Shown here: in pieces, positions 9,518-54,935 of the stretch | How positions within the stretch are numbered: position 1 is the stretch's first letter | Layout: every line of letters starts with the position of its first letter | DNA from: Marsupella aquatica | Lineage: Eukaryota > Plantae > Marchantiophyta | Length of the DNA: 64,000 nucleotides | NCBI GenBank assembly: GCA_973895155.1 | Contig: OZ316892.1 | Span: 31,055,802-31,119,801, forward strand | Direction: 5' to 3' | Notes under the pieces: generated by a model | The model's input: the letters and a program-made list of their open reading frames with translations, nothing else | Told to the model about the DNA's origin: nothing | Database searches by the model: none | Program-made: the position numbers and the translations under genes

Positions 9518-9591
9518 TGACCCGATGAAGGATCTGTCCAGTATATGTGTGTAAAATGTTAATAGTAGTAGTAGAAGGTTAGCAGCGTCCC

Positions 9592-20449: not shown

Positions 20450-21855
20450 GTGGTGCTGACAGAGGAAGCCCAGAGCACTGAGTTCAATCAGAAGTTGACA
20501 AGACTAGCACTTTGGGTGGATGGTTTGTCAACCCCACTGTGGGTTAAGGCAAGGGCGAATTTGGTTACTCATTGCAGATTTCCATCTAATGTTAGTTATT
20601 GCACGAGAGATCGGTCTCAAGTCACTGCGAAAGGGATTGGTAGTAGGCATATGCATCCTGGTACCACGGGTCAAACAATTGCTATATTGAAAGATCGTCT
20701 ACAGCGAGGCATTGCTATAGACTCGTACACATATGTTAAAGTTCTGCAAATGTGCTTGCAACAGAAAGACCTTTCAGGAGCCAAGCAAATTCATGATTGC
20801 ATCATCGAGAGTGGAATTCACGAAAATCCATCTGTGGCAATCACGCTTTTGAATGTGTATATCAAATGCGGAGGTTTATCGGATGCACGTAGAGTGTTTG
20901 ATCAAATTCAGAAGAAGAGTGTTATTACTTGGACCAGCATGATGGTGGTATACTCTAGGAGTGATCATGCTGAATCTGCACTGAAAATTTTGAATCTAAT
21001 GCGCCAAGAAGGCGTGAAGCCGAATGAGATCACGTATCTGAGCATCCTGAATGCATGTTCAAGTCCATTAGCTCTCAATTGGGGAAAAGAAATTCATCAG
21101 GGTATTCGACATGCCGGCTCTGAATCAGACGTGCGTGTAGGGACTACTCTCGTACTGATGTACGCTAAATGTGGGTGCATCACCGAGGCAAGGAAAGCTT
21201 TTCAAAAGTTGACTAATCGAAATGTCATTACATGGAATGTTATGATTGGAGCATGTGCAGAACGTGGTGATGGTGTGGAAGCATATCGACTATTCCTGCA
21301 AATGACACGGGATGGCGTCAAACCAAATGCAATCACCTTTACGAGCATGCTGAATGCATCCGCATGTGATGGGGGTTTGGCATGGGTGAAGGACGTTCAT
21401 GGCCACGCTAGGAAAGCGGGACTGGAGTCAGAATTGCGTGTGGGCTCTACGCTGGTTCACATGTATGCAGAGAGTGGCAGGATAGGTCACGCCCGACTGG
21501 TTTTTGATAGAATGGAGAAACGCGACGTAATCACATGGAATGTAATGATAGGAGGACTTGCACAACATGGATGTGGACACGAAGCATATCGATTGTTTCT
21601 CCAAATGAGACAGGAAGGCTTTTGAACCAGATGCATTCACTTATGCGAGTATTCTGAATGCATTTGCAAGTGCGGGGGCTTTGGAGTGGGTGAAGGAGGT
21701 TCATGGCCATGCTAGAAATGCCGGACTGGAGTCAGATTTGCGTGTGGGCTCTGCGCTGGTTCACATGTATGAAGAGAGTGGCAGGATAGGTCGGCAAGCA
21801 CCAGAAAAACAAGTCTTCTCTCAAGATTTAGAGCTCTGGACTAGCCCAAGTTAAT
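20450..21855 (+). pseudogene. PLS-class pentatricopeptide repeat (RNA-editing-factor type) gene, frameshifted and truncated
   Basis: P-L-S triplets (SVITWTSMM, KPNEITYLSILNAC, DVRVGTTLVLMYAKCG, NVITWNVMIG); an extra T in GGCTTTTGAACCAGAT gives a stop at 21623-21625, while another frame continues EPDAFTYASILNAF; array breaks off near 21790 with no E/DYW domain. Confidence 0.9.
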
Positions 21856-28250: not shown

Positions 28251-29639
28251 ATTTAGGAGGAAAGGTTTCTGAGGTGTCGGGCTACGGCAGATTACTTCTT
28301 CGAATAGTTAGTAACGTATAACGGGTTATGAGTCCTTTAAGTAGCAGGTAAAGTCTGTCTGTCATGGGTTGTGCGTAGATCCCTTTTGTGGAGTTGCTCA
28401 GTGACCATGGCAGTTCCCACCCACACTATTGCTGGTGTGACTGTAATTCCATTTGTGCTGTAATGATGTTTGGGAGTCACCGGTTTTTTGCGACTGTGTT
28501 CTGCTGTGTCACCCTGTGTCGACATGACTACTTTCGGGAGGCACACTTGTGTTGTAGACTTCTACAAAGGTGGGATACACTCCAAAACTTCCATTCTGCG
28601 ATGTGCACAATGTGAAATAGAAGAGGAGAGGTACGCCCAGCAGCTGAAACTCATTTTTGCTATGAACTCATTATTTAACCACCCCCGTCGACCCTGAGCG
28701 ACGCTCGCCCGAAAAGCCCGTGGCTCCCCGCACGTTTTATTTATGTAGGATAGGATAACGCATCCCGAAAGGGTTGTGAGCTGGAGGGGTGTTTTGCAGC
28801 CCATCATCCACGTGAGGGTTCCATATGGTATTTAAGAAACATTTGCCTCACTTCTATATATGGACTTTACTGTGTTGTGAGGATGGGCCTAGCAAATTTC
28901 TGCCTATAAATTCCATACCAACATCTTATTGCTAATCTGAGCATTGTACCCGAGTTGTATTCAGATAAAGAGATGGATATATGGTTTAGGGTTAACGGTT
29001 GGGGGGCGCGGTGTGGAGGGCGCGATTGGGGGGCTTAGTGTGATGGGAGGGTGTGGTGCTGTTGTAACCTGGGTCGAAATTAGGACCTTGACCTTGTGTG
29101 TTTACAACGGAACCCTAAGTTGGGTTCGCCTTGTGTGTCTTGGTCAATGAACACATTCCCCCGGTAAATGCCAAAAATTTGCAATGGCCAAGTACAAGTT
29201 TTGAAATTGCAAATGGTCTGCAAAGAAAACGCTCAAATGCTCGGCAAACAGTACTCCTTCTTGAGATCAAAAGTCGTAGCCTGTGACGCCGCCGGTACGG
29301 CGGTTAATGAGTGATTCAGTCTAACTGCGCTCGGCACGCGCGTTAGGTGGGTCTTAGGCCGCTATTATTAGCATAATGACAGTATTTAGGTAATCATTAG
29401 GGGTAGGACATCATTAGGCAATAAGGGGGACCTCAGGTTCGGGCTGGCGGCGGGTCGCTATTCGCACACCCGGGTTATGAGCATGGAGTGGCCCCTCCCT
29501 CGGGTCCGTATAACGAACTTAAGGAAGCGGCCACTGACGCACGCTGACTCAGACCGATGGAGTGGCCGGTACACCACAAGCGTGAGCGGTTCAACCTATG
29601 GGCGTCGAGGAGACGTCGGGGATCGACAAGCCCTCAAAG

Positions 29640-29646
29640 TATAAAA
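29640..29646 (+). promoter_or_regulatory. TATA box (TATAAAA) of the 5' LTR
   Basis: Canonical TATAAAAGGGG, 108 bp upstream of the LTR-ORF ATG; identical copy at 39761-39767. Confidence 0.7.
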
Positions 29647-29747
29647 GGGGAGCCAACCCTTTGTAGTGCACCAGTCCATCAGTCCACGCGCCAGCTTCGA
29701 CCCCAGCTCTCTCGTTCTATCTAGGTCGCCACTACTATCTCCTCTGA

Positions 29748-32408
29748 ATGTCGCACACGATCCTCTCCAGCTCGGCCATTCGATTCTGGACGCAGTTCCT
29801 ATCTACCGGAAGGCACTTGGCCGATTCATTGAAACACGCCAACCCGCGCCGATACGAGATCGAACGCGAATACGAGAGAGCCATCCGCCTAGCAGGACGA
29901 CACCACTACGTCCTTAACTTTGACTACCCGTCTCAGAGCGAGCTTTACCGACCAGCTGAGGTATCTGGGTACTTCTTTGACGGAGACAAATATATCGGGT
30001 TCTGGGAAGCATTGCTTCGGCTTCCGGACGAGGTCTTCAATATCCCGGGTACAATCGACCTGCAGCGACATCACTTCGACCACATCCCTGCCCAGGTTCG
30101 GGCAGTCATTAACGGCGAGTCCAGTACCAACCGTTCGACAAGGGCGTCCGCACTCGCTTCGGAGAACTTCTACCAGCACCTACAGAGCTTCATGGGAACT
30201 CGGCCATCAACCAACATGACCAACTCAGCCGGACCCGTACCCGTACCCGTACCCGTACCCATACCCGTACCCGTGCCCATGCAACCTCAGCTTCAGCTTC
30301 AGCCTCAGCCGCAGCCTAGCCAAACCCCACCACCTATCACCCAGCCAGCACAGGTACGCTCCGTCATCAACGCGGTGGATCTTAGCGATGACGACGAGGC
30401 TACCCCACCCTTGACCAGGCGGCCCAGAGGAACAAGCGCTCGGGGGGCCGACACTATACCGTCCCCACCCCCTGCTCTGACCCCAGGAGCGGCCCCAGCA
30501 GACAACATGGTGACCGTGGCCGCCCCGGGCCCGTTACCAACCGCAGTGGCACTCCCCAGGCCCGATCGGGAGGATGGGGAAGTATCACCTTCCCCGAGTC
30601 AGTCACGGGGAAAGAAGAGAAAGGAATCCGCCAGTGCATCCGGGTTACCGTTAGCCACGGTAGCCGTAGCCAAGGTAACGATGCATCGCATGGGGGAAAA
30701 CGTTCACAGCAACATCCTCCATCCCAAGCATGCGGTGTACCTGAAGACTCAGGGATTTGAGCACCTCGCCTCTCTCCCCTGGAACACTTGCAGGTACTAC
30801 GGGGAGGACATGACAGAATTCGTCAAGAATTATGACGACGTACGTCAACAGACTCGGCTGCGGGGAAGGAATATGTCCCTCACAGAAGAACGGCTCAAGA
30901 TGATCTTCGGGTTACCCGAAGGTGACCATCGAGTCGAATCACGGGCTCCCGGGGGCAAGGGGGCCAAGTACCAATCTTCAAGTTTTCCCTCAGAGGGATC
31001 AGTAGACAACGGGTTCGTGATGAGGACCTGCCTCATGCCCGAGATAGCTGAGCGGCTGGAGTTCCAGAGGTACGCTCTCCACTTGATGGAACCCCGGGGG
31101 GAGATCTCCGCCGCCCAGGTCATCCAGGTCGAGAACTATCGACCTAGGAAGTGGGCGTCGTACTTCGCTAAGAAATTCCATGAAGAGATGGAGCGACGAA
31201 GGAAGACGCTGTACATTGGCGGGAAGGCGTATTTCGCTAGCCACATCGAAATCATTCTTGAGTGGTATGCCCGGTTTGATCGACGAACCCTTCCCCGCAT
31301 CAACGTTACAAAGCTGGTCCCAGCTAGGTGGGTTTTTCCGGCATTGGAGAGACGGCCCCAACCCGAGGCCCGAAGTCCAGTGGACACGCCAGCTTCACCC
31401 ACCCCACCTCCACAAATAGCTGTAATTGTAACCGAGGAGGCGCCGGAGGGGTCGGTCGTCGCAACCGTTGATGCGACCCAACTAGTCGGGCTAAGTACAG
31501 AAGTTGGTACGGCAGAGGTCTTACCCGAACCCGGGTCTCCCAAGGACCCGCCGGTGGCAATTCCGGAGAACCGGACATCGCTGCAGGAGGATACTCCGGC
31601 CCCTTCCAACGTTATGTCCCCAGGGCTGGACGTCACTGCCCCGGCCCCTGCGCGTGTTGATGTCTGCCCGTGCCCAAATCCGGACAGGCACAACTTGGAC
31701 CACCCGGAACTCTTCGTACAGGGTACGTTTCTGAACGGGCTTCTGGGAGATTTCTCTCATCAAATTGCCCGGGATACCGGGGAGTTCATGGCTCGGAAGG
31801 TAGCCTGTTTCTTCAATCAGGAGTTGGTTGCCGCCGTAAAGGCAGGGCGGGCCCAGTCGGAGGCCCTTCAGAGGATAGAGCGGTACCGGGAGGAGTCCGT
31901 GTACCTAAAGAACGAAGTGGCGGCTCAAGAGGCTGAGCTTCTGCAACTATGACCCAAGGTTGCAGCCGCCGATGAGTTGTTAGCAAAGGCGTACGCTCTT
32001 ACCGCCCTAGCCGAACAGGCCAAAGCTGGGAACGAGGCCAAGATTACACGACTCCGGAACCAGATTGACAGTTTGAAGAAACAAGCTGTCACCTGGCAGA
32101 AAGACCTGGAGGAGGCCGAGGAGCGAGCCCAGCGGGACGCGACGGAGATAGCCACGCTGCAGGCCGAGATGGCGCGGCTCCAAATCGAGGCCGAGAAGCA
32201 GGACCAGCTGGCGAGTAAACTGGCGAGCGACGCCCAGCAGCTGGAGGAGGCATGTCAGGAGGCAGCAGAGGAGACGGACGTGGCGAGGCGAGAGAATGAA
32301 TCTCTGCTGGACCAGGTCCAGCTCCTCAAAGCGGACAATGACAGGCTTCGAAGGCAGCGGGATGGCCGTTCCCATTCGGGCGGCTCTGGCAAGCGTGCCA
32401 GGCATTAG
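29748..32408 (+). pseudogene. 5'-LTR copy of the LTR-encoded ORF with one nonsense mutation
   Basis: Colinear with 39869-42529; CGA>TGA at 31950-31952 splits it into 734-aa and 143-aa ORFs. Confidence 0.93.
30234..30318 (+). repeat. coding hexamer microsatellites (CCCGTA)n and (CAGCYT)n encoding PV and QP/QL linkers
   Basis: Directly visible; second copy at about 40355-40439. Confidence 0.85.
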
Positions 32409-33322
32409 CGGCGGAGTAGGAATAGATTAGGATTAGGATTGGCTTAGTCAGGCTCTTGGGACAGGCACCTGCCTTAGGTACGGCAGCGCTGCCCTGCTGT
32501 CCAGCCTGCGTAGATTATGATCTTCTAATAAGACACAGCCGTTTTCCGGCCTGACTGTCAGCTTAGTTAGGACCTTGGTCAGCGAATCTTCGGCGGGAGG
32601 ACGCCCCGTTCCTCGGCTCTTAGTATTTAGTGCACCCCTCGGTAGAGGCAGGGGGGGGGGTTTTTAGTTTCAGAGTCGGACATCCGCGGGACATGCGGGG
32701 AGTCCCGACCTCTAGGAATGACAGAGTACCAAGGGGAGGGGGTAGGACTAAGCTTGTCGGGCGAGTGCGGAGCCGGGCTCCGTTGTAGTGTGCACCCTTG
32801 GCCTTGAACCTGTGCATTCCAGGGCTGTCGTGTCAACTAAGTGTACGCATATGTTCCCTTTGTAGTAAAAATCCTTTCCCATCATTTTTCCTTCGTGTAA
32901 ATCGAGATTGTATGCATGTGTGCGCATATGTGTGTGGGTTTCTCGTATATGGGTGGCAGCGCCGGGCCGAACGCACTACCCGAGACGTGCACAGGGTGCA
33001 GCCTGCGGGTAAGTGGTTGCGAGCACGGGTTGAGGACCTGTATCATCGAATCCGGATCGAAGGCGGACAGCACGAAGGCTTAGAAGCCCTTAAGCCGGGG
33101 TCGATCCTGCTATCGACTAAGGTACGTTCCGGCGGCGGAACACAAACCATACCTAGGAGGTGTCCGTATTTAGCAGTATGCGCACTTAGCGCTAGTTTAC
33201 GAGAATAAGGTGCATTACGTACTTCCCTTCCTGCCCGAACCCTCAGATTTACGAGGGATGTGCCCGTCTAAGCTGAAGTCTGAGTTAAGGCCGAAGCCTA
33301 CGACGTGACATAGCCTTTGTTT

Positions 33323-33340
33323 TGGCGCTAGATGGAGGGG
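33323..33340 (+). promoter_or_regulatory. primer binding site TGGCGCTAGATGGAGGGG
   Basis: TGG-initiated 18-mer 12 nt after the 5' LTR; cognate tRNA not determined. Confidence 0.75.
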
Positions 33341-33433
33341 GCACTCTACATATCGTAGAGGGGAGACATGTGCGTATTCACCTAGGCAGGATACATCAGG
33401 ACGTAGTACTAACCATTGCATTTATATGAGTAA

Positions 33434-36400
33434 ATGCCCGTCACTCGTTCTCAAGCAGCTTACTTGAGGAGATTGACCAGCGAACGAGAAAGTGCAACCA
33501 CAACAAGCTCCGACTCGTCGGGCTCGGAGGACTCGCAATCGTCCCGACGTATGAACATACCCCCGGGATCTTCGGGGTCCGGTTCGACCGGCCCTGCTGC
33601 GGTTCCACCACCACCACCACCACCACCACCACCTATGGCAGCCGCTCCACCGGTGGCCCGCGCTGCTCAGGCGCCTCCACAAATATCGCAACGATCGCGA
33701 TTTCATTATCGACCTTTCAAAGGGCGTCATGGGGATGATCCGGATGAATGGTTGGATGAGTTTGAAGCCACTACTAAAGCTAATGGGGAAGACGCCATTA
33801 AGCTAACCGTCCTCCCGGGAGTAATGCGGGGAGAAGCTCGTCCATGGTACAACTCGTTACCACCCGGGACTACCTGGGCACAATTCCAAGCTGCATTGCT
33901 GCAGGAGTTTCGTGCCATTGGATCAGAACAACGTTCTCTATTAAAGATTGGCCAGCTTCGCATGGGAAAAAAAGAGTCCCTGCGGAAGTTCATTCAGAAG
34001 TTTCAGAAACTTGCGGCCAAGATCCGGCACAGGCCAGGAGACGCGCTCCAGCTTACATGGTTCCTTCATGGTTTGCCCACGAATATGCAATTCTGGGTAC
34101 GCCAGAATAATCCAATTTCAATGCAGGCGGCCATAGCGTGCGCCGAAACTTACCGGGAGTCCACCTATAACTCCCGGCGGAGCCAGCGAGCACGCCGCAG
34201 GAAGGGTAAGTACGAAACCTTCAGTGACAGTGACTCCGAATCGGACGACAAGAGGAAGAAGAAACGGAAGAAGAAGAAGAAACGGAAGAAGAAGAAGAAA
34301 CATCGTTCGACCTCGTCCAGCTCTGAGACGGAATCCAGTTCGGATTCAGCTTCAAGCATCGGATCCTCTACCTCCAGTTCATCAGGAAGTGACTTGGAGA
34401 GCGAAAGCCGGAGCAAAAAGAAGAAGAGACGAGTGAAGAAGGAGGGGAAGATTAAACCCCGGGCGTGAAGAACGATACCAGATCCGAAGGCTGCCGAAGC
34501 AGACAAGCTGAACGAAATCACGGATCGACTCAAAGCACTGTCAGTACATCTTGCGGAGAAGCCGGTGGAGAAGAAGAAGCCATCTGAGATTCGAGCCCAT
34601 GCGTGGTGTTCAAAGTGCTTCCAATCCGGCCATGTGGTGCAGGAATGCCCAAGGTGGAAGAACCGAGTTCACCAAGTAGAGTTGGATGATGTTGACAACC
34701 TGGGCCCCGAATCGGAGTCCACGGAGTATTTCTTTGAGGACCCTCCTGATTCCGTGTACCAGATTTCAACGGTTGGTCCGCGTAATTTAGCGGGTAGAAC
34801 TGCGTACCCCTACCCAAGTAATGGCCGGAGTTTCCAGGTTATCAGTAACCCGAGCATCCCTCCTAAGCCAGGGATTTGGCGGTCCCCGGTTTGTTACAAC
34901 TGTGAAAAGTCAGGACACTTTGCGAGGGAATGCACCGAACCAAGACGTCAGGGAGATGGCCGAGGCACCCCACTATGTCAAGTTTGCAAAACGGAGGCTC
35001 ATTCCACGGCCAACTGTCCGTTGGTAATCGCTGCTCGAACGAGTGCGGCTAGACCAGTCACGAGCGATGCAGTCGTCCAAATGATTGCTGTAGAATGGCA
35101 AGATGACAACACCGAGTGGGTGAATCTGGTGGACGTGGCGGAACACCCTAATCCATTGGATGAGGCCGAGTGCTACCGAGTGTCGACAAGGGCCGAACGG
35201 AAGGAAGAAAAGACGGAGGAGAAACGGAGGAAAAAGCAAGATACTACTCCAGTGCAGCCAGCGATAAATATACCCCCGGAAAAGGACGATGACTACCGAC
35301 GGGACGACCCGAAGCTATTTTTCCCCCGCATCGAAGAATTGGTAAAGAAACAGCTGGAGGCTTACGAAGCTCGGGAATACCAGAAGGCAATCGATAAGGA
35401 CATCAAAGCAGCCGAGACAGCCCGGCGTCAGGAGCAAGAAAAGCAAGATAAACAAGAGGAAGCCAAGCAGCAGCCAACGAAAGAAACAAAGGAGGACTAT
35501 GATATTAAGGAGGACGTGAAGAGTTGCCCGGTTACAGCGACGGTGGGGCAACTGCTGCAGAACAACCCACAGTACAGACGACAACTGAGGGAGTTGCTCA
35601 TGGGTCACCGAAGGAGAAGACTACCCCGAGTTGGGAGTGCGGACTGCAACATGATATGCGAGGACCTTGGAGCGCCGGACATCTCGATCGAAATTAATAA
35701 CTGTACCATCAAGATGGTCCTTGTAGACGGAGGAGCGGGAGTCAACATCATGACTGAAGAAACGTCAGTCAAGTTAGGATACCTCACGTATCAACCCACG
35801 GCCCGAGCTATCAGATTAGCAAACGGGGCAAGGGTCCTCCCATTAGGCACGCTCACACGAGTGCTCACTCTGGTGGGAGGGGTAGAGTTCTATCTCAACT
35901 TCTTAGTCATGAGGCCGGTTTGTCCCTCCTCTTATCCGGTTCTTCTGGGCAGGCCGTGGCTGTACGGTGGCCGTGTAGTCACGGATTGGGGAAAGAAGGA
36001 GCTACGGTTCGGGGAACCCACCGTACGGGTATCCTGGGCAATGGACGATTATCAGGGAGAAACCCCACAAGGACCCGAGGAATATGATTCGGAGACCTCG
36101 GAGGAAGAGGAACTCAATATGATCGAACTCATCTCGTCCCTATCCGAGGAAGATGTCTTCGGAGTTGAAGCAACCCGAGAAACACATCTCCTAAATTACC
36201 CGAGGCTGCCATTGAGTCCACCCCAAGTACATCTACCGTCGGGGATGAGGAAACGCACGAACAACTCGTCGAGACGGAGGACACGGCTCCAGCTAAGCAG
36301 GGAGCCGTGGCTACTCCTTCCATTTCAGAGCCTTGTAACCATGAACCAGCCCAACAACCGCCTGAGGCCGAAAACTCGAGACCGAGACATAAAAAGCGAG

Positions 36401-36439
36401 TCTCATGGGATCCGTCCATTCCGCAATTGGAGGAAGTAA
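33434..36439 (+). CDS. gag: gag-protease, one in-frame TGA at 34466-34468
   Basis: MPVTRSQ start; capsid (PFKG..DPDEWL..MRGEARPWY); Lys/Ser-rich tract; three CCHC knuckles; protease LVDGGAGVNIM..LLGRPWL; ORFs 33434 and 34565 share a frame. Confidence 0.9.
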
Positions 36440-39435
36440 ACCCCATCCCGAGACCAATCCCGGTCCCACCCATGTACGGAGGGGTTCGGTTAGCTGAGCT
36501 TGACGCGAGCCTGGACCCGAGTCTGCGAAACCAGGTTGAAGTCATCAGGAAGGAGCACTACCGGAAGTACACTATTGGGATGGACAAATCTTTTAACCTG
36601 GGCCACGCTTTGACGGGGAAGGCTGAAAAAGCCATCCAAGCTTTGCTCAAGGAATATGAAGATGTGTTTGCATGGAGTCATCATGATTTAACAGGCGTCT
36701 CCCCCGAGTTGGGAGAACACACAATCGATCTGAACCTAGGAGCCCATGCGGTACGACAGCGACAACGTCGCATGAATCCGAGGTACTCCATCTTAGTGAA
36801 GGAGGAAATTGATCGTCTCCTCGCCGCCAATATCATTTACCCGGTAATGGCCAGCGACTGGGTCTCTCCCATTGTCATTGTACCAAAGAAGGGAGGTACG
36901 GATGGAAAACCTAAGATTCGTATCTGTCAGGACTACCGTAAGCTGAATGACGCAACCCGAAAAGACCATTACCCATTACCATTCACGGATATGGTTCTAG
37001 ATATGGTGGCCCGAAATGAAATCTATACATTTCTTGACGGGTATTCAGGTTATAACCAAATCTGGATTCGTCTCGCGGATCAGCTCAAAACAACGTTCAC
37101 TACGGAGTGGGGAACGTTCGCATTTCGGAGGATGCCTTTTGGTCTGTGTAACGCCCCGGCTATGTTTCAACGCCTTATGATGAATATCTTCCACGATTTC
37201 CTACGGGAATTTTTGGAGATATTTATCGATGACTTTGCCATCTTCGGAACCGTTGCCATGCACCCCGAACACCTACGACGAACGTTGCAACGATGCCGAG
37301 ATGTTAACCTCAAACTACATCCCGCCAAATGCTTCTTCGGGGTAGAGGAGGGGGTGTTACTCGGGCATCGTGTGTCCAAACGGGGCATTGAGGTGGACCA
37401 AGAGAAAGTTGCGGCCTGGATGGCGGTGGTGTTCCCCTTGGATCAAAAAGCAGTACGATCCTTCTTGGGCTGCGTAGGGTATTACCGCCGGTTCATTAAA
37501 GACTTTGCTAAAATTGCGTTGCCCTTAACTGAGATGATGAAGAAGGACGCAGCGGTCGAGGAAACACCCCGGAGACGGATTGCTTTTGAGGAACTCCGTA
37601 AACGACTCACCACCGCGCCTATCATGGTCACCCCAGACTGGAATAAGGAGTTCCACGTGTATGTCGATGTGTCAGGGTTCTGTATCGGATCCGTACTTAG
37701 TCAGCTAGATGAGGATGGACGTGATCACCCCATCTATTTCGCTAGCCGTCAACTATTTGCAGCCGAAAAGAATTATTCCCCCACTGATCGAGAAGCTTTG
37801 GGAATAATCTACTCGTGTAAAAAGTTCCGACACTATCTGCTAGGCTACAAGGTCATTTTCCACACGGATCATGATAGCCTGAAGTACATGGTCAACAAAG
37901 CGGATGTGACAGGACGGATAGCCCAGTGGGTGCTACTTCTCCAGGAATTTAATTACGAAGTTCGGGTTCGGCCAGGAAGGGGACACCTCAATGCCGATTT
38001 CTTTTCACGACTGGACGGCGTACCAGTCGATCAGCCAATTGATGATATTTTTCCGGATGAGGAGTTGTTCCACGTAGGGGAAGGGACACCAACGTGGTAC
38101 GGCTCAATAATCACCTTCCTTTTAACGGGCCGCATCCCTGACGGCATCAATCAGGAGGCCGCCGCTGTGTTTTTACAGAAAGCCGGGCCTTACGTCATGA
38201 TACAGGGTCACCTACATAAGGAAGGTATTAACGGAAAGTTACGACGCTGCTTAGAGTATAAGGAGACACTTATCGTGATAGGGGCCCTGCATGAAGAAGA
38301 AGCTGGAGGCCATTTCGCGGCAGTTACGACAGCCCGAAAGATTCTGGACTCGGGGTATTGGTGGCCTACGTTGCATCAGGATGTACAGCGCTTCATTAAG
38401 GGCTGTGACTTGTGTCAGCGAGCGGGGGCCCCGAGGCGGGCTCATCATCACCCGCTCACATCTGTGCTTCCATTGGCACCATTCGAAAAATGGGGAATTG
38501 ATTATATCGGACCGTTCACTCCCGTTACCCGAAGGCGAAGGTGCAGATACATCCTATTAGCTATTGATTACTCCACCAAATGGGTCGAAGCGCGGGCTAC
38601 GGTAAAGGACGACGCCGCAACCAGTGCCAGATTCTTATACGAACAGATTTTCACCCGATTCGGACCGCCCTTAGAATTGGTAAGCGACCGTGGAACCCAC
38701 TTCCTCAATGACACCGTAGCCCAGCTTACGGAGCGTTACCTAGTCAAGCACCGCAAGACTACCCCATATCATCCTAAAGCCAACGGGATGGCGGAGAGAG
38801 CAAATGGTATCATTGGGAAGATCCTCAACAAAACTGTAGCTGCGCACAAAACGGATTGGGATGATAAGTTGTACGCGGCGGTGTACTCGTATAATCTAGC
38901 TTACAAAACTACTACGAGTCATAGCCCGTACTTTCTGGTGTTCGGCCAACATTCGTTGGTGCCCGTCGAATTTGAAGTGCACACTCCACGGGTCAGCATT
39001 CGGGATCGCTTACCTGAATCTGAAAGTCTGTCAGACCGAGCTTATCAGATTGAAGCCTTGGAAGAAGCACGGCTACTGGCAGCTCGACACACCGTGAAGA
39101 AACAGGCAACTTCGAAGAAGCAGCACGACAAAGGACTACGGAGGGTCGACGTCGTGGCAGGCGATCTAGTCCTTCTGTACGATAGTAGGTACATGCAGTT
39201 TCCAGGGAAGCTGCATACCCGGTGGTTGGGGCCCTTCCTTGTCAATCAGATCTACCGAAACGGATCTTTGGAGCTTGCGACGTATGCCGGCGATTTACTC
39301 CCCACGCGAATCAGCTACGATCGTGTAAAAAAGTACCACCATCAAGATGACGACGCCGATAGCGATGTTCGCGAGGACGCTTCACAATTAAGCAGGGAGC
39401 TATGTGACGCCGCCGGTACGGCGGTTAATGAGTGA
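36169..39435 (+). CDS. pol: gypsy pol (RT, RNase H, integrase) in the -1 frame relative to gag-PR
   Basis: CQDYRKLN, FLDGYSGYNQI, MPFGLCNAP, FIDD, VDVSG..EKNYS, HHCC zinc finger, WGIDYIGP, SDRGTHF, NGMAERAN, WLGPF; frame opens after TGA 36166-36168 and ends 33 nt inside the 3' LTR. Confidence 0.96.
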   Translation, partial: SNPRNTSPKLPEAAIESTPSTSTVGDEETHEQLVETEDTAPAKQGAVATPSISEPCNHEPAQQPPEAENSRPRHKKRVSWDPSIPQLEEVNPIPRPIPVPPMYGGVRLAELDASLDPSLRNQVEVIRKEHYRKYTIGMDKSFNLGHALTGKAEKAIQALLKEYEDVFAWSHHDLTGVSPELGEHTIDLNLGAHAVRQRQRRMNPRYSILVKEEIDRLLAANIIYPVMASDWVSPIVIVPKKGGTDGKPKIRICQDYRKLNDATRKDHYPLPFTDMVLDMVARNEIYTFLDGYSGYNQIWIRLADQLKTTFTTEWGTFAFRRMPFGLCNAPAMFQRLMMNIFHDFLREFLEIFIDDFAIFGTVAMHPEHLRRTLQRCRDVNLKLHPAKCFFGVEEGVLLGHRVSKRGIEVDQEKVAAWMAVVFPLDQKAVRSFLGCVGYYRRFIKDFAKIALPLTEMMKKDAAVEETPRRRIAFEELRKRLTTAPIMVTPDWNKEFHVYVDVSGFCIGSVLSQLDEDGRDHPIYFASRQLFAAEKNYSPTDREALGIIYSCKKFRHYLLGYKVIFHTDHDSLKYMVNKADVTGRIAQWVLLLQEFNYEVRVRPGRGHLNADFFSRLDGVPVDQPIDDIFPDEELFHVGEGTPTWYGSIITFLLTGRIPDGINQEAAAVFLQKAGPYVMIQGHLHKEGINGKLRRCLEYKETLIVIGALHEEEAGGHFAAVTTARKILDSGYWWPTLHQDVQRFIKGCDLCQRAGAPRRAHHHPLTSVLPLAPFEKWGIDYIGPFTPVTRRRRCRYILLAIDYSTKWVEARATVKDDAATSARFLYEQIFTRFGPPLELVSDRGTHFLNDTVAQLTERYLVKHRKTTPYHPKANGMAERANGIIGKILNKTVAAHKTDWDDKLYAAVYSYNLAYKTTTSHSPYFLVFGQHSLVPVEFEVHTPRVSIRDRLPESESLSDRAYQIEALEEARLLAARHTVKKQATSKKQHDKGLRRVDVVAGDLVLLYDSRYMQFPGKLHTRWLGPFLVNQIYRNGSLELATYAGDLLPTRISYDRVKKYHHQDDDADSDVREDASQLSRELCDAAGTAVNE
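39390..39399 (+). promoter_or_regulatory. polypurine tract (AAGCAGGGAG)
   Basis: Purine-rich run 3 nt before the 3' LTR TG. Confidence 0.65.
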
Positions 39436-42400
39436 TTCAGTCTAACTACGCTCGGCACGCGCGTTAGGTGGGTCTTAGGCCGCTATTATTAGCATAACGA
39501 CAGTATTTAGGTAATCATTAGGGGTAGGACATCATTAGGCAATAAGGGGGACCTCAGGTTCGGGCTGGCGGCGGGTCGCTATTCGCACACCCGGGTTATG
39601 AGCATGGAGTGGCCCCTCCCTCGGGTCCGTATAACGAACTTAAGGAAGCGGCCACTGACGCACGCTGACTCAGACCGATGGAGTGGCCGGTACACCACAA
39701 GCGTGAGCGGTTCAACCTATGGGCGTCGAGGAGACGTCGGGGATCGACAAGCCCTCAAAGTATAAAAGGGGAGCCAACCCTTTGTAGTGCACCAGTCCAT
39801 CAGTCCGCGCGCCAGCTTCGACCCCAGCTCTCTCGTTCTATCTAGGTCGCCACTACTATCTCCTCTGAATGTCGCACACGATCCTCTCCAGCTCGGCCAT
39901 TCGATTCTGGACGCAGTTCCTATCTACCGGAAGGCACTTGGCCGATTCATTGAAACACGCCAACCCGCGCCGATACGAGATCGAACGTGAATACGAGAGA
40001 GCCATCCGCCTAGCAGGACGACACCACTACGTCCTTAACTTTGACTACCCGTCTCAGAGCGAGCTTTACCGACCAGCTGAGGTATCTGGGTACTTCTTTG
40101 ACGGAGACAAATATATCGGGTTCTGGGAAGCATTGCTTCGGCTTCCAGACGAGGTCTTCAATATCCCGGGTACAATCGACCTGCAGCGACATCACTTCGA
40201 CCACATCCCTGCCCAGGTTCGGGCAGTCATTAACGGCGAGTCCAGTACCAACCGTTCGACAAGGGCGTCCGCACTCGCTTCGGAGAACTTCTACCAGCAC
40301 CTACAGAGCTTCATGGGAACTCGGCCATCAACCAACATGACCAACTCAGCCGGACCCGTACCCGTACCCGTACCCGTACCCATACCCGTACCCGTGCCCA
40401 TGCAACCTCAGCTTCAGCTTCAGCCTCAGCCGCAGCCTAGCCAAACCCCACCACCTATCACCCAGCCAGCACAGGTACGCTCCGTCATCAACGCGGTGGA
40501 TCTTAGCGATGACGACGAGGCTACCCCACCCTTGACCAGGCGGCCCAGAGGAACAAGCGCTCGGGGGGCCGACACTATACCGTCCCCACCCCCTGCTCTG
40601 ACCCCAGGAGCGGCCCCAGCAGACAACATGGTGACCGTGGCCGCCCCGGGCCCGTTACCAACCGCAGTGGCACTCCCCAGGCCCGATCGGGAGGATGGGG
40701 AAGTATCACCTTCCCCGAGTCAGTCACGGGGAAAGAAGAGAAAGGAATCCGCCAGTGCATCCGGGTTACCGTTAGCCACGGTAGCCGTAGCCAAGGTAAC
40801 GATGCATCGCATGGGGGAAAACGTTCACAGCAACATCCTCCATCCCAAGCATGCGGTGTACCTGAAGACTCAGGGATTTGAGCACCTCGCCTCTCTCCCC
40901 TGGAACACTTGCAGGTACTACGGGGAGGACATGACAGAATTTGTCAAGAATTATGACGACGTACGTCAACAGACTCGGCTGCGGGGAAGGAATATGTCCC
41001 TCACAGAAGAACGGCTCAAGATGATCTTCGGGTTACCCGAAGGTGACCATCGAGTCGAATCACGGGCTCCCGGGGGCAAGGGGGCCAAGTACCAATCTTC
41101 AAGTTTTCCCTCAGAGGGATCAGTAGACAACGGGTTCGTGATGAGGACCTGCCTCATGCCCGAGATAGCTGAGCGGCTGGAGTTCCAGAGGTACGCTCTC
41201 CACTTGATGGAACCCCGGGGGGAGATCTCCGCCGCCCAGGTCATCCAGGTCGAGAACTATCGACCTAGGAAGTGGGCGTCGTACTTCGCTAAGAAATTCC
41301 ATGAAGAGATGGAGCGGCGAAGGAAGACGCTGTACATTGGCGGGAAGGCGTATTTCGCTAGCCACATCGAAATCATTCTTGAGTGGTATGCCCGGTTTGA
41401 TCGACGAACCCTTCCCCGCATCAACGTTACAAAGCTGGTCCCAGCTAGGTGGGTTTTTCCGGCATTGGAGAGACGGCCCCAACCCGAGGCCCGAAGTCCA
41501 GTGGACACGCCAGCTTCACCCACCCCACCTCCACAAATAGCTGTAATCGTAACCGAGGAGGCGCCGGAGGGGTCGGTCATCGCAACCGTTGATGCGACCC
41601 AACTAGCCGGGCTAAGTACAGAAGTTGGTACGGCAGAGGTCTTACCCGAACCCGGGTCTCCCAAGGACCCGCCGGTGGCAATTCCGGAGAACCGGACATC
41701 GCTGCAGGAGGATACTCCGGCCCCTTCCAACGTTATGTCCCCAGGGCTGGACGTCACTGCCCCGGCCCCTGCGCGTGTTGATGTCTGCCCGTGCCCAAAT
41801 CCGGACAGGCACAACTTGGACCACCCGGAACTCTTCGTACAGGGTACGTTTCTGAACGGGCTTCTGGGAGATTTCTCTCATCAAATTGCCCGGGATACCG
41901 GGGAGTTCATGGCTCGGAAGGTAGCCTGTTTCTTCAATCAGGAGTTGGTTGCCGCCGTAAAGGCAGGGCGGGCCCAGTCGGAGGCCCTTCAAAGGATAGA
42001 GCGGTACCGGGAGGAGTCCGTGTACCTAAAGAACGAAGTGGCGGCTCAAGAGGCTGAGCTTCTGCAACTACGACCCAAGGTTGCAGCCGCCGATGAGTTG
42101 TTAGCAAAGGTGTACGCTCTTACCGCCCTAGCCGAACAGGCCAAAGCTGGGAACGAGGCCGAGATTACACGACTCCGGAACCAGATTGACAGTTTGAAGA
42201 AACAAGCTGTCACCTGGCAGAAAGACCTGGAGGAGGCCGAGGAGCGAGCCCAGCGGGACGCGACGGAGATAGCCACGCTGCAGGCCGAGATGGCGCGGCT
42301 CCAAACCGAGGCCGAGAAGCAGGACCAGCTGGCGAGTAAACTGGCGAGCGACGCCCAGCAGCTGGAGGAGGCATGTCAGGAGGCAGCAGAGGAGACGGAC

Positions 42401-43429
42401 GCGGCGAGGCGAGAGAACGAATCTCTGCTGGACCAGGTCCAGCTCCTCAAAGCGGACAATGACAGGCTTCGAAGGCAGCGGGATGGCCGTTCCCATTCGG
42501 GCGGCTCTGGCAAGCGTGCCAGGCATTAGCGGCGGAGTAGGAATAGATTAGGATTAGGATTGGCTTAGTCAGGCTCTTGGGACAGGCACCTGCCTTAGGT
42601 ACGGCAGCGCTGCCCTGCTGTCCAGCCTGCGTAGATTAGGATCTTCTAATAAGACACAGCCGTTTTCCGGCCTGACTGTCAGCTTAGTTAGGACCTTGGT
42701 CAGCGAATCTTCGGCGGGAGGACGCCCCATTCCTCGGCTCTTAGTATTTAGTGCACCCCTCGGTAGAGGCAGGGGGGGGTTTTTAGTTTCAGAGTCGGAC
42801 ATCCGCGGGACATGCGGGGAGTCCCGACCTCTAGGAATGACAGAGTACCAAGGGGAGGGGGTAGGACTAAGCTTGCCGGGCGAGTGCGGAGCCGGGCTCC
42901 GTTGTAGTGTGCACCCTTGGCCTTGAACCTGTGCATTCCAGGGCTGTCGTGTCAACTAAGTGTACGCATATGTTCCCTTTGTAGTAAAAATCCTTTCCCA
43001 TCGTTTTTCCTTCGTGTAAATCGAGATTGTATGCATGTGTGCGCATATGTGTGTGGGTTTCTCGTATATGGGTGGCAGCGCCGGGCCGAACGCACTACCC
43101 GAGACGTGCACAGGGTGCAGCCTACGGGTAAGTGGTTGCGAGCACGGGTTGAGGACCTGTATCATCGAATCCGGATCGAAGGCGGACAGCACGAAGGCTT
43201 AGAAGCCCTTAAGCCGGGGTCGATCCTGCTATCGACTAAGGTACGTTCCGGCGGCGGAACACAAACCATACCTAGGAGGTGTCCGTATTTAGCAGTATGC
43301 GCACTTAGCGCTAGTTTACGAGAATAAGGTGCATTACGTACTTCCCTTCCTGCCCGAACCCTCAGATTTACGAGGGATGTGCCCGTCTAAGCTGAAGTCT
43401 GAGTTAAGGCCGAAGCCTACGACGTGACA
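39403..43429 (+). repeat. 3' LTR (4027 bp)
   Basis: TGTGACG...CGTGACA followed by TSD TAGCC. Confidence 0.97.
39869..42529 (+). CDS. intact 886-aa LTR-encoded protein: N-terminal globular region, Pro-rich linker with NLS-like RGKKRK, PMD/Transposase_32-like domain, C-terminal coiled coil
   Basis: ATG-to-TAG ORF wholly inside the LTR, downstream of a TATA box; G..L..LPW..EF..N...RG....L...L...FGLP pattern resembles the accessory domain of Athila/Tat-type extra ORFs. Confidence 0.9.
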   Translation: MSHTILSSSAIRFWTQFLSTGRHLADSLKHANPRRYEIEREYERAIRLAGRHHYVLNFDYPSQSELYRPAEVSGYFFDGDKYIGFWEALLRLPDEVFNIPGTIDLQRHHFDHIPAQVRAVINGESSTNRSTRASALASENFYQHLQSFMGTRPSTNMTNSAGPVPVPVPVPIPVPVPMQPQLQLQPQPQPSQTPPPITQPAQVRSVINAVDLSDDDEATPPLTRRPRGTSARGADTIPSPPPALTPGAAPADNMVTVAAPGPLPTAVALPRPDREDGEVSPSPSQSRGKKRKESASASGLPLATVAVAKVTMHRMGENVHSNILHPKHAVYLKTQGFEHLASLPWNTCRYYGEDMTEFVKNYDDVRQQTRLRGRNMSLTEERLKMIFGLPEGDHRVESRAPGGKGAKYQSSSFPSEGSVDNGFVMRTCLMPEIAERLEFQRYALHLMEPRGEISAAQVIQVENYRPRKWASYFAKKFHEEMERRRKTLYIGGKAYFASHIEIILEWYARFDRRTLPRINVTKLVPARWVFPALERRPQPEARSPVDTPASPTPPPQIAVIVTEEAPEGSVIATVDATQLAGLSTEVGTAEVLPEPGSPKDPPVAIPENRTSLQEDTPAPSNVMSPGLDVTAPAPARVDVCPCPNPDRHNLDHPELFVQGTFLNGLLGDFSHQIARDTGEFMARKVACFFNQELVAAVKAGRAQSEALQRIERYREESVYLKNEVAAQEAELLQLRPKVAAADELLAKVYALTALAEQAKAGNEAEITRLRNQIDSLKKQAVTWQKDLEEAEERAQRDATEIATLQAEMARLQTEAEKQDQLASKLASDAQQLEEACQEAAEETDAARRENESLLDQVQLLKADNDRLRRQRDGRSHSGGSGKRARH

Positions 43430-43559
43430 TAGCCCTCTGTGAACCGCCCGACCACAACGACGACTCTTCCACAGCGACCACACGCAACTTTTAATGTAGG
43501 AAACAACCTATTGTTGTAGGCATTTGTGATGAGATTAGCTCCGTGAGGGTTTCATTCCA

Positions 43560-46640: not shown

Positions 46641-48498
46641 CTATTGAATCTCAGGAGCGGATTTGAATTTTCTTTGTTTATCCTGAAAGAAAGCTGTGTC
46701 TGACCATACATACAAACATTGGTAATGTAATCGAATTGATGATGTATGCAGGTCTCACCTGATCCAAACGGTAACGGAGATTGGTCTCATTTGCCAATCG
46801 AAGTTGTTGATTTTCCTGCCCCATATGTTGTATTAACTTGGCAGCTTTTTCAGTTTCTTCTTGAAGCAGGGTCATCTTTAGTCGATAAGCTGCTCTTGAA
46901 AATGTAACTGATCCCTGCTCTACTAATGTGGACAAGTCAAATCCATCAATGTTGTGCAGTGCCTCGTGAAGATAAAATTCCATGGCTTTTTCCCTTTCCT
47001 TCGAAGCTTCTATGATGAAGGACTCCTTGGCCTCAACTTTGGGATTCCCTGCCTCTTGCAAACGTCGGGTGAGGTCGTCAAGGAGTTGTAAATCCGTGTC
47101 GAGCTGCTTCTTCAATCCCTGTACTTCTTCTTCTACTTTTCGGCATTGGCTCCGTTGGTTCTGTATCTCTCCCTGGAGCCTAGCATTTTCCTCTTTCAGT
47201 GCGTCTAGTTGCTTACATATTCTAGGCTCACACGGCCCCAATTTGTCTGACCTCTGTTCCAAAGCCGTGCCGTCGATTGTCATGCTCTGTACCGTTCCCT
47301 TGTGTAATAATGTACCTTCGGATTTGTGCAATGACTCTGCGGCGTCCTGATGAAATCCCATGTTCCGGCTGGGGCTCTCTGCAAACTCTTTTCCCTCGTT
47401 TACCGATGTGACGGCTACCCTCTGTTCGAAACCTTTCAATTGAGATGCATCTACTGATTCCAGCTTCTGTACATGTACATCCACCCGTCCGTCCTCCGAA
47501 CCGCCTTCCACCATGGAGGATTGTAAGGCGTGGTTGCTCGCCCTGAAGTTGTGCAAAATGTATGCTCCCTGTAGAGTGGCTTCTTCTCCACGATCTTCTT
47601 CGCCTTCTGAACTGTGATCGCGTGCTTCTTCCTGTTCCGGATTAGCTGCAGTCCCATGTGGTAAGGTGGATTCACTGGTTACCCAGTTTTCCCCGACGGC
47701 ATGACTGTAAGCAACGGTTTGCCGGTGACTCCTATGCCATTGGCGATTTTGCGGTGCAACATCAGGGATGGCGGTGGTATCCCTGATCGGGTTCACCATT
47801 CTTTTCTTTAGCACCCAACAAATGATGTAAGCAAGAAGTGAGGGAAAAGGAGGAACCGATTTGGACCCGAGTTTCTGAAGCAACTCTGCCTTCCACACTT
47901 GCAACGGGTGGAGCTCGCCTTCGAGCGCTCGAGCGGCGATCGTGATATGGTCAATTGTCCCATGATGGTAACCAGATTTTATCATCACCCATTTGGTGAA
48001 AAACTCTATATACTTGCGGACCTCCAAATTTGTCACCGTCCCGTATTGGATCTTCCCGGCACGGATCGAGGATCTCAAGTCACGGTCCGACCTCAAAAAG
48101 CCGATAATCTGCCGTGGAGTGTAAGGTGTGCACTTCACTCTTGTCAGGAGCTGCGATGGAACTAAACCTGGAATCCCAAACATGTTTGCCAATTCTTGGT
48201 TGAGCACCCTAATAAGCGGTGTCCTATCGTACTCGATGCAAAGTGACGCCTCATCCCCATAGACTGATCGTATATTCCGATGATAATATGCAGCCTCTGC
48301 CAAGGTCAGATCGCAACCCACCCGGACCATACCCAGGCATTTGGCACGACGGAAGATGCTCTCAAATTGAGTAATGTAAGCGGTGTCCGTTCGCGAGTTC
48401 CGAATGTTGGCCTCTGCCGCCATTGTAACGGTTTTAGAGCCATCGATAACTGCAGTGTTTCGAGTAGTCTCCGCGCGAGACCTCTTTCTGCTCGACAT
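46641..48498 (-). CDS. intact two-exon gene, distant PMD/Transposase_32-like domain plus coiled coil (exons 48498-46759 and 46682-46641)
   Basis: MSSRKRSR start; NQELANMFGIP, EVRKYIEFFTKWV and PSLLAYII match the LTR-ORF motif order; CAG/GTGAGA donor and TTTCTTTCAG acceptor define a 76-bp phase-0 intron ending DKQRKFKSAPEIQ*. Confidence 0.7.
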
Positions 48499-49953: not shown

Positions 49954-50784
49954 TCATACTTTGTTGAACCTCATCTCCAAATTGCGCCACTTGTCTTTCA
50001 GATCAACCTGTGGCACGAGGCACGAAAAAGGAAATTGAGAAAATTCCTCAGATCCATTACATTGATTTACAGGAGGTGGTGCGAATTATTCTGACCTCAT
50101 CAACGTACCTGGGATCGGTCTCGCAATGTTTGCCCGCTTTCTCGACGGATTGCACTCCAACTGCCTTTCCCAAACCTGTGGCACAGAGTCTTTGCATGCT
50201 TTGAAAATTGAACTCAACCAAAATGAATGTTCCTAGACTGGCCGGTACACGCTGTACGAATGGAAACCGCGAAAAGGACTTGTGTGTGGAACGCAAACCA
50301 TTAATTCATACGGAGCGTTGACATGACACAAGTCCCCAAACTCACCTGCTTACTCCGTTTCTGAGGCACTGTTCCTCTTCTTTGGTCCACCTTCTAAATT
50401 GCCTGCGCATAGATTTTGATGAGTCGGAGCTCATTCTGCTGATGGTGGAGGCAGATTGCGATGTTACGACAGTATCAGGTTCATCCAGTCGCATTCCCTC
50501 CCACCGGGTATGCCCCGCTCCCACCTGCACGAAGAGATTCAAAACATGTCAGGTTGCTGTGAATCAGATTTATCCTTATTCCATGCAGCCCAGCTCGGAA
50601 CGGCCGATGATACCGTCTTACCTGTGCCGAAGGCTGAAGAGGACTGGGCGCGGCGTGTGCATCCAATATACGTTTCCTCTGTGGATTCTGCCCTGACATC
50701 ATGCGCGTATCACATTTAGTTTGGCTACCTTCCGTGGTGAGAGGAGTATGGGAACATTGCCAGGGCCGAGCGCCAACAGAGTAT
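49954..50784 (-). CDS. 3' exons of a gene ending in a TRF-like telobox Myb domain (exons 50784-50622, 50524-50346, 50175-50109, 50007-49954)
   Basis: GT-AG introns with compatible phases give RRWTKEEEQCLRNGVSR/FGKGSWSAIRRESGQTLRDRSQ/VDLKDKWRNLEMRFNKV*; LKDKWRN is the telobox signature. Confidence 0.9.
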
Positions 50785-51483
50785 CTGTGAACAATTGAAC
50801 GAGGATCTCTTAACTATCTTGTCATACGTTGCTCTCATAGCTGATGATACAGTCTTACATTGCGTAGAACTCATATTAAATATACAGGGGCACGAATGCC
50901 AGGAATTCATGGCTTGGGGGCAGCAGATGGTAGTTTACAGTTTCCATGACCCAGGCTTTACATTCTTGGAATTTTATACGTGTGTTGCCCGAAGCATAAG
51001 CTAATGGAACACGTAATGCTTATGCAGATGAACGGGACTTTCGAAATGTGAGACCCACAGGATTCGAGGCAAACAAAACGCTCCCCGTTTCAAGAAAGAG
51101 CAATGCTCGATCTCCGATCAGAAGCAGATGCATTCACTAAATAGGCAGATACTTGATGCACGTACCCCCCCTATATCTTCCTAGTTTGGTTTAAATACCA
51201 TCGTGTGTGTATATAGTGTAGTGTAGTGTAACCAAATCCAAATCCAAATGCCGGAACGATACAGAGAGGATGATCCCTGCACCCTCCACCTCGGTCGCAC
51301 TCCGACGAATCAGTGGCAGTCTTCCGTGCGTACCCCACAGGTTTTAGGTGTGGATGGCCTGGGGTTCCTTCGACTGGGACGTGCCATAAGTCGACTGTAC
51401 CGGTCCTGTGCTAGACTTATTTAATAAGCTGTCCGTTGACAGACTCGGCCTTCATGTCGGCGATCTGAGATTTCCCCGTGTAC

Positions 51484-54471: not shown

Positions 54472-54611
54472 GGTAGGGCTCTGCAGGTCCCAGTGTGATC
54501 AAAATGGCCCGCACAAACTTCAATTACGCTTTCAAAAACCCTTTTAAATAACCCTAAACGTTTTGTCGACCAAGATGTGCTTATCGCCACGCCTTGGAGC
54601 CCCAAAACGAG

Positions 54612-54935
54612 TGAGAGAATGATAGTCCCGTCTACTCACTCTTGTCAAACCTTGCTTGCGCATCACCCTGAAAGAGCGCGATAGAATCACAGTCCCTTCT
54701 ACTCACTCTGTTGAACCTCGGATGCCCACAACCCTGAAAGAGCGCGAGAGAATCATAGTCCCTTCTACTCACTCTGTCAAACCTCGGATGCCCACAACCC
54801 TGAAACAGCACGGCAAAATGATAGTCCCATCTCCTCACTCTTGTCGAAACTCGTCCCACAGCCCAGAAAGAGCGAGAGAGATTGATAGTCCCAGCTCCTC
54901 ACTCTTGACGAACCTCGCTTGCCCACAAACCCTAC
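54612..54935. repeat. about 66-bp tandem repeat, 5 units, immediately upstream of the 54471 start codon
   Basis: Units GAGAGAATSATAGTCCCTTCTACTCACTCT(T)GTCAAACCTCG..CCCACAACCCTGAAAGAGCGC visible at about 54612, 54680, 54745, 54811 and 54874. Confidence 0.9.

Follow-up and report, generated by a model that had tools for sequence, protein, structure and literature searches.

Background

Accessory open reading frames (ORFs) of plant long terminal repeat (LTR) retrotransposons have been placed in the internal region only (PMC7264820; PMC6317226), and plant LTRs themselves are usually treated as non-coding. Here we describe a Ty3/gypsy element of the liverwort Marsupella aquatica whose LTRs hold a gene of 886 codons between a TATA box and a putative 3'-end signal, an arrangement that forces an unusual expression plan. 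The element lies in a stretch of 64,000 nucleotides of contig OZ316892.1 (assembly GCA_973895155.1, positions 31,055,802 to 31,119,801), hereafter the window, the numbering of which is used below.

The ingredients of this arrangement are already known separately, namely accessory ORFs, long LTRs, LTRs with two promoters and, in animal retroviruses, LTR-borne genes. Thus MMTV sag, HIV nef and foamy-virus tas are accessory genes that lie in or reach into the LTR, or that are expressed first from a promoter of their own to activate the main one. Among plant elements, Ogre replicates with LTRs of up to 6.5 kb (PMC6431247), and for rice Retrosat2 an early TATA box and an R region of 2023 bp have been predicted, in silico only (PMC3485330). 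The accessory protein VANC binds short motifs in the non-coding DNA of its own transposon and removes methylation (PMC5735166); it has a fold in common with the host PMD protein MAIN (PMC13547354), and angiosperm gypsy elements carry PMD genes (PMC5418596). A phrase search of open papers listed neither a plant element that carries an entire gene within its LTR nor a retrotransposon protein of VANC fold, and three further papers (PMC11963269, PMC11728184, PMC12885004) add no LTR-borne case.

A gene within the LTR

The explanation that we favour, with about even confidence, is that the LTR carries an accessory gene transcribed from the TATA box at 29640, with its 3' end at a TGTA signal, that gag-pol is expressed from a second, TATA-less start, and that the gene product is a DNA-binding regulator with the VANC/PMD fold (Table 1). 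The two starts, the position of polyadenylation and the role of the protein are inferred from features of the sequence.

A preliminary description of the window had reported its clearest TATA box about 360 bp into the LTR, an 886-codon ORF as the first one met by a transcript from there, and a gag start codon some 3.75 kb downstream, which would make R plus U5 about 3.6 kb long. These distances hold: the TATA box stands 358 bp into the LTR, and the gag ATG at 33434 follows it by 3794 bp and a start near 29670 by 3764 bp, R plus U5 computing to 3641 nt from the latter. The ORF is indeed the first one met, its ATG lying 108 bp after the TATA box behind a leader of 78 nt (29670-29747), and it is open throughout only in the 3' LTR, the 5' copy being cut to 734 codons. 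The TGA at 31950 is missing from the 3' LTR and from a third LTR copy in the window, and hence arose after insertion.

The TATA box is the single TATAWAW in the 4029-bp LTR and also its sole site within one mismatch of TATAWAWR; presence alone is not rare, such a motif occurring in 169 of 1000 dinucleotide shuffles of the LTR. It is followed by a pyrimidine-rich stretch (41 C and 26 T at 29682-29781) and, behind the stop of the gene, by five TGTA in 130 nt, a density matched by 3 of 1000 shuffles and found again behind both diverged homologues described below (17 and 3 of 1000 shuffles). This TGTA-rich region lies about 400 nt from the LTR end, and the anatomy of plant 3' ends marks it as a likely poly(A) region. 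TATA box, pyrimidine-rich leader, ATG and TGTA cluster thus form the parts of a gene cassette, and judging from this order the TATA box at 29640 likely serves, most simply, the LTR gene.

The gene looks maintained, since indels are absent from its 2661 nt, as against seven in the non-coding LTR (among 12 of 13 indel rows), and since a full-length homologue exists (P0211, 29% over 934 columns). Substitutions are not decisive, neither the ORF changes between the two LTRs (7 silent, 6 missense, 1 stop) nor the nine ORF rows from 762 variant rows (5 silent, 4 missense). The puzzle moreover belongs to the family rather than to the present decayed copy: its gag-pol is interrupted by a stop codon (34466) and, near 36200, by a break in the reading frame, both of which are absent from most contigs covering them, just as the other two LTR copies lack the stop in the ORF.

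Expression of gag-pol

Translation of gag is the hard part of the puzzle, and the preliminary description was right to regard it as a real problem. Ribosomes scanning from the TATA-driven start cannot reach gag, since 44 ATGs lie between that likely start and the gag ATG. The beginning of gag is conserved, reading MPVTRSQ in the present element and MPITRSQ in P0060. Fusions of the ORF with gag are impossible because an in-frame TAA stands immediately 5' of the gag ATG. A splice that frees gag must leave before 29748, where the four GTs score -4.6 to -7.7 and the AG/GT site of the leader ranks 128th of 197 as a donor; seven contigs of one run (X1) diverge from 29714 onward. The hypothetical intron is 58% GC and 19% T. 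The two CAGs proposed earlier as acceptors do end at 33389 and 33399. They would be poor acceptors, since the 24 nt ahead of them hold 11 pyrimidines, 5-6 of these being T, and lack a branch motif; use of either would also leave the out-of-frame ATG at 33426 in place. No GT-AG deletion in the LTR was seen among 15 of the 83 joints of one comparison, nor among 10 of another. Poor donors, weak acceptors, a GC-rich intron, the impossibility of fusion and the lack of such deletions together favour a second start for gag-pol.

Under the favoured explanation, the LTR gene would be transcribed from the TATA box into an RNA ending near 32784-32950, gag-pol RNA would come from a start that lacks a TATA box and lies within the final 0.9 kb of the LTR, and the LTR protein would recognize specific sequences in the LTRs of its own family and counteract their silencing or activate them. 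The RNA that is copied could begin at this second start, ahead of the poly(A) site, which would put the gene in U3 and leave about 0.55-0.9 kb for R plus U5; or it could be a read-through from the TATA box, with a long R and separate RNA pools as in BARE. We lean somewhat towards the former. The preliminary description had set a very long R plus U5 against a gene in U3 with its own promoter, poly(A) site and a second start; the latter option fits the sequence better, and the choice omitted the third solution known from BARE, in which separate RNA pools serve copying and translation (PMC3735527).

The further concern about very long strong-stop DNA was overstated. Such DNA is no real barrier: under every model the plus-strand form measures 4 kb, running from the polypurine tract (PPT) through U5 and the primer-binding site (PBS) (PMC7197481), and Ogre, with LTRs longer still, provides a precedent. 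A long R would also permit early template switching of the retroviral kind, which would keep strong-stop DNA short.

Donor-like sequences score highest within the LTR at 33009 and 33122, both of them 3' of the TGTA cluster. Going by the motifs, a short splice from 33122, the better one, to 33399 would drop four small ORFs, a hairpin and the PBS, and so yield an RNA for translation only. A TATA-like site at 33421-33430 was rejected as a gag promoter because its RNA would begin behind the conserved gag ATG.

The LTR protein and its predicted fold

The protein of the 3' copy consists of an N-terminal domain, a low-complexity linker, a central domain, a coiled coil and a basic C-terminus. The central domain (residues 312-511, alignment of 42 rows) was modelled at a pLDDT of 96, and its top match among PDB structures in Foldseek is DNA-bound VANC21 (probability 0.97, TM 0.56, E 0.053; next match at most 0.03). 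The same protein heads a wide VIA fold search (Z 7.6, root-mean-square deviation 4.0, 183 of 200 residues aligned; next row Z 2.4), and a further fold comparison with it gave Z 7.7, the aligned residues numbering 183-189 of 200 over both runs. Sequence searches of the PDB returned coiled-coil noise only, and a viral fold search gave no match at E 0.001. The Pfam family Transposase_32 (PF20167) does not match the LTR protein itself and matches 7 of 42 aligned relatives (best E 1.6e-7; Atlas lead 0.83). The predicted fold supports a nuclear DNA-binding regulator, and anti-silencing appears the likeliest role on the strength of the model. CpG is undepleted along the element (observed/expected 0.88-1.07, as against 0.39 in a copia element and 0.63 in a long interspersed nuclear element), a difference that youth alone could explain.

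Weighing the alternatives

A number of observations weigh against the explanation preferred here. The region that would hold the second start (32409-33310) contains no TATA within one mismatch and is G-rich rather than Y-patch-like, and a start there would still leave 5-13 upstream ATGs, so that a model with two starts likewise has to invoke leaky scanning, internal entry or a short splice. Family 2 lacks the best donor (33122), and the matrix by which donors were scored was an approximate one. The PPT stands at its ordinary place after integrase (IN), with no relic LTR start shown within the LTR, which fits insertion of the gene into R as well as expansion of U3, and the order TG, TATA box, leader, poly(A) signal, CA, that of an ordinary LTR with a gene inserted, favours a long R. 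As to the protein, its central domain is only 10% identical to VANC21, a Z of 7.6 is middling and within the range that the tool calls common for best matches, and a shared fold by itself shows no function, the host silencing factor MAIN having the same one. No array of long target motifs was found in the LTR, nor any 6-9-mer clearly above shuffles, and the present copy, all 21 transitions of which lie in CG or CHG context, has been methylated.

With a single promoter, the TATA box at 29640 would start all RNAs; most would end at the poly(A) site of the 5' LTR as mRNA of the LTR gene, some would read through as genomic RNA (with an R of 3.2 kb), and gag-pol mRNA would arise by splicing out gene and PBS together. 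The TATA box is the only one in the LTR, and its 358 bp from the LTR start are an ordinary spacing for U3; the PPT is in its usual place behind IN, and early template switching could keep strong-stop DNA short. The in silico prediction for Retrosat2, an early TATA box with a 2023-bp R (PMC3485330), points the same way; yet no credible donor precedes the ORF's ATG, the acceptors are weak and the intron GC-rich, the ATG at 33426 would remain, and a poly(A) site present in both LTRs would see an identical upstream context of 3.2 kb, and we regard this reading as rather unlikely. Dispensing with the splice, gag-pol could be translated from full-length RNA if the structured 400-700 nt at the end of the leader provided an internal ribosome entry site or a shunt, for which the conserved hairpins at 33099-33155 and the cap-independent entry of Idefix and retroviruses (PMC3735527) may be quoted. 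Since, however, folding of 33000-33440 is not beyond shuffles (z -1.23), a packaging signal explains the hairpins equally well, and a tail of 10 kb past the first stop should attract nonsense-mediated decay, such entry seems quite improbable. That the 4-kb repeats are no LTRs at all, being a segmental duplication or a misassembly, might be read from the TAGCC behind both repeats and from a PBS 12 nt from the end, where 0-5 bp are used in PMC6317226; it is refuted, with next to no probability left, by the TG...CA ends, the 5-bp target-site duplication (TSD), a third copy with the same end base, a contig of run X2 in which 39400 is joined to 29282, and a depth that is even over the repeat and 4.7-6.4 times that of the internal region in all four runs.

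A serious if somewhat doubtful possibility, the standing of which is not additive to the others because its layout overlaps with that of the favoured explanation, concerns the protein: it may be an Athila-type accessory that serves some other purpose in the nucleus or in structure, such as targeting, tethering to chromatin or export of RNA, or one that dampens the family. Seven of 42 members match Transposase_32, a family whose function is unknown and which is akin to Athila ORF1 (PMC11728184), the PMD fold serves the host silencers MAIN and MAIL1 (PMC5418596), and the present copy was methylated. Against this, the sole solved structural match is a DNA-bound anti-silencer, the order of a folded domain and then a long coiled coil resembles that of VANC21 (PMC13547354), and CpG is not depleted along the element, though its youth could account for that.

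Architecture of the element

The element has gag, protease (PR), reverse transcriptase (RT), RNase H (RH) and IN between LTRs with TG...CA ends and a TSD, as is diagnostic of Ty3/gypsy. Its internal region measures 6092 bp, and the pol stop codon falls within the 3' LTR. The right end of the 5' LTR is fixed by the third copy, which stops at the same base with its CA end at 5414; no PBS follows that copy, which is thus a solo or a 3' LTR. Between the two LTRs there are 22 substitutions and a single gap of 2 nt. The 21 transitions among them all lie in CG (14) or CHG (7) context, a pattern that matches methylation decay after insertion and indicates that the present copy has been methylated; at usual plant rates, insertion would date to about 0.2-0.4 million years ago. 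The candidate PBS may be tRNA-Asn-like, and no tRNA was found in the window. The first five bases behind the 5' LTR (33311-33315) are TAGCC, the sequence of the TSD, either by chance (about 1 in 1000) or through homology-guided integration of a long overhang.

Table 1. Positions of the features discussed, in the numbering of the window
Feature	Position	Strand	Remarks
Ty3/gypsy element	29282-43429	+	14.1 kb; TG...CA LTR ends, 5-bp TSD
TSD, TAGCC	29277-29281		right copy 43430-43434
5' LTR	29282-33310	+	4029 bp, TGTGAC...GTGACA; by self-alignment
TATA box TATAAAAG	29640-29647	+	358 bp into LTR; likely promoter of LTR gene
LTR gene, 5' copy	29748-32408	+	TGA at 31950-31952 (codon 735), 734 codons open
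Central domain (residues 312-511)	30681-31280 (5' copy)	+	modelled from 3' copy, 40802-41401; VANC21/PMD-like predicted fold, Transposase_32-related
Purine run AAGGGGAGGGGG	32731-32742	+	candidate second plus-strand primer or relic PPT; precedes shared block
TGTA/U-rich cluster	32784-32912	+	likely poly(A) signal region
Two-hairpin module	33099-33155	+	tail CAAAC(C)ATACCTA; conserved; holds best donor-like site 33122
Candidate PBS TGGCGCTAGATGGAGGGGG	33323-33341	+	TGG-led, 12 nt behind 5' LTR end
gag-PR-RT-RH-IN	33434-39435	+	gag, zinc knuckles, protease, RT, RNase H, integrase, in this order; Pfam
PPT-like tract AAGCAGGGAG	39390-39399	+	directly after IN, 3 nt ahead of 3' LTR
3' LTR	39403-43429	+	4027 bp
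LTR gene, 3' copy	39869-42529	+	886 codons open, 2661 nt
Third LTR copy, right part only	2813-5414	+	99% identical; left side cut off by copia element
Diverged family 2	5432-9521	+	ORF 5432-8773, 1113 residues; collinear non-coding tail, TGTA cluster, hairpin at 9425; right end approximate
Diverged family 3	50560-55192	-	TGTCAC start 55192, TATA-like 54550, broken ORF 54471-51484, TGTA cluster behind

Among named pol proteins, those of Calypogeia (66-68%) and Riccia are the nearest. In a quick tree of 100 RT-RH rows without REXdb references, the element grouped with P0060 and two rows from Calypogeia (100), the angiosperm rows standing apart. No chromodomain was matched by Pfam, and pol ends about 35 residues past the IN tail, so the element is not a chromovirus. 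Three named lineages were rejected: Phygy has a 4-bp NCGN TSD and a tRNA-Trp PBS (REXdb table), the TSD here being the 5-bp TAGCC; Selgy has a 4-bp TSD, a tRNA-Ala PBS and a length of 4.4-6.7 kb, as against 5 bp and 14.1 kb; and for Tat (TatI-III, Ogre, Retand) Pfam found no extra archaeal-type RNase H in either pol piece, RH adjoining IN.

Depth was taken from public DNA runs available in contig form. Summed depth is even across the LTR, at 4.7-6.4 times that of the internal region in four of four runs, a figure which, as the tool warns, is not copy number. LTR depth being some five to six times internal depth, many solo LTRs seem to keep the gene, and most gene copies probably reside in solo LTRs.

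The two-hairpin module near the LTR end coincides with a depth peak with loose ends on both sides. It folds into two hairpins in both families 1 (the present one) and 2, with one two-sided change at the stem base among only three sequences, and is a candidate packaging signal or, perhaps, promoter element. Folding of 33000-33440 as a whole is no better than that of shuffles, Rfam has no match within 32400-33450, and prokaryote genomes scanned with the hairpin motif gave chance matches only. Further upstream there are a G run at 32650-32660 and a block at about 32742-32791 that is common to the LTR and the diverged copies. The tetramer TTAG is in excess on the sense strand at 29343-29417 (6 against 1.3 expected), 32405-32667 (12 against 5.8) and 8774-9521 (12 against 5.2); spotted post hoc, the enrichment concerns three of five non-coding regions, in families 1 and 2 and not in family 3.

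Homologues within and outside the window

Two diverged homologues of the LTR gene occur in the window, neither with gag or pol alongside. The tail of family 2 is collinear with the LTR (score 112.5, shuffled maximum 89.5) and has an exact 14-mer in common with it (2 of 500 shuffles). Only 17 bp separate the end of the third LTR copy from the ATG of the family 2 gene (5414-5432), that copy having inserted into the leader of the gene. In family 3 the TATA-like site stands 79 bp before the ATG, and neither an LTR end nor a TSD was found; four to five tandem repeats of 66 bp at 54613-54931, upstream of that site, are a candidate enhancer or target array.

Outside the window, a profile search with the domain returned 87 relatives, including three from Calypogeia and one from Riccia among the ten looked up, while a single-sequence search with the domain returned none. 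Longer fused forms of the LTR protein did not come out of the search, which is weak evidence. A metagenome scan with the domain found nothing and one with pol found 11 loci, one of them (L006) with the domain; its homologous ORF starts about 500 nt after pol (434 nt here), preceded by an AT-rich and then a C/T-rich stretch of its own, the LTR limits not being visible. Three other loci (L001:2-7375, L002:1483-9234 and L004:1106-8824) are gypsy relatives, each with one ORF of about 2500 codons extending some 450 residues beyond IN, and the tail of L005 resembles a second aspartic-protease motif. Of the proteins P0001-P0027, P0121-P0124 and P0211, many pol relatives are encoded on contigs measuring about 6.0 kb, close to the 6092 bp of the internal region here, or 9-10 kb, and for several gene homologues the contigs measure 3.6-4.5 kb; these sizes are a hint, no more, of large gene-bearing LTRs across the clade.

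Elsewhere in the window, orphan coiled-coil ORFs lie at 46678-48498 (minus strand) and 60285-61232 (plus strand), neither of which scores with the domain profile; the former has the overall layout of the LTR gene and may, from that likeness, be a more distant accessory gene. A copia element at 281-2812 has 18-bp repeats in its LTR, and a fragment of a pentatricopeptide repeat (PPR) host gene with long repeats (20651-21792) is the sole clear host gene.

Implications and comparison with described systems

Proteins of the Transposase_32/Athila type are of unknown function, and the fold match suggests a concrete, testable function, the first that we could find for such accessory ORFs. A VANC-like role in a retrotransposon, if true, would extend sequence-specific anti-silencing beyond the VANDAL DNA transposons. 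We may speculate, while holding it unlikely, that in a liverwort-lineage Ty3/gypsy clade an anti-silencing gene of the VANC type was transferred to the LTR. Each LTR, even a solo one, would then be a self-contained cassette of promoter, gene, poly(A) signal and target sites that first switches the family on and then licenses the TATA-less gag-pol promoter. Recombination between LTRs by the host would in that case leave helpers instead of inert scars, and a preponderance of gene copies in solo LTRs would alter the reading of solo LTRs in these genomes.

For the proposed division between two starts, BARE1, a copia element of barley, provides a precedent, its upstream start giving R-containing RNA and its downstream start the RNA that is translated (PMC3735527); its two TATA boxes are, however, about 330 nt apart with no gene between them. 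Retrosat2, RIRE3 and RIRE8 (Tekay) as well as Ogre share LTRs of more than 3 kb, an early TATA box, a predicted long R and an extra ORF upstream of gag, but that ORF is internal, and therefore single-copy and missing from solo LTRs. The LTR-associated genes of MMTV, HIV and foamy viruses belong to animal retroviruses and encode unrelated, much shorter proteins, and their location in U3 has been mapped.

Athila, a non-chromovirus Ty3/gypsy lineage, shares with the present element a 5-bp TSD, the lack of both an archaeal-type RNase H and a chromodomain, and a coiled-coil accessory ORF in sense orientation that is related to Transposase_32. The Athila ORF, however, is internal, between pol and the 3' LTR, and expressed from spliced RNA (PMC7197481, PMC7264820), whereas the present gene lies wholly within the LTR behind a TATA box, and RT-RH groups here with Calypogeia and Riccia proteins, away from the angiosperm matches. 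With VANC21 of VANDAL21, an Arabidopsis MuDR transposon, the LTR protein shares the predicted fold of its central domain and the condition of a transposon accessory gene product with a coiled coil; VANC21 is encoded by a DNA transposon and binds motifs of 8-9 nt in tandem arrays (PMC5735166), whereas the present gene belongs to a Ty3/gypsy LTR in which no such array was found.

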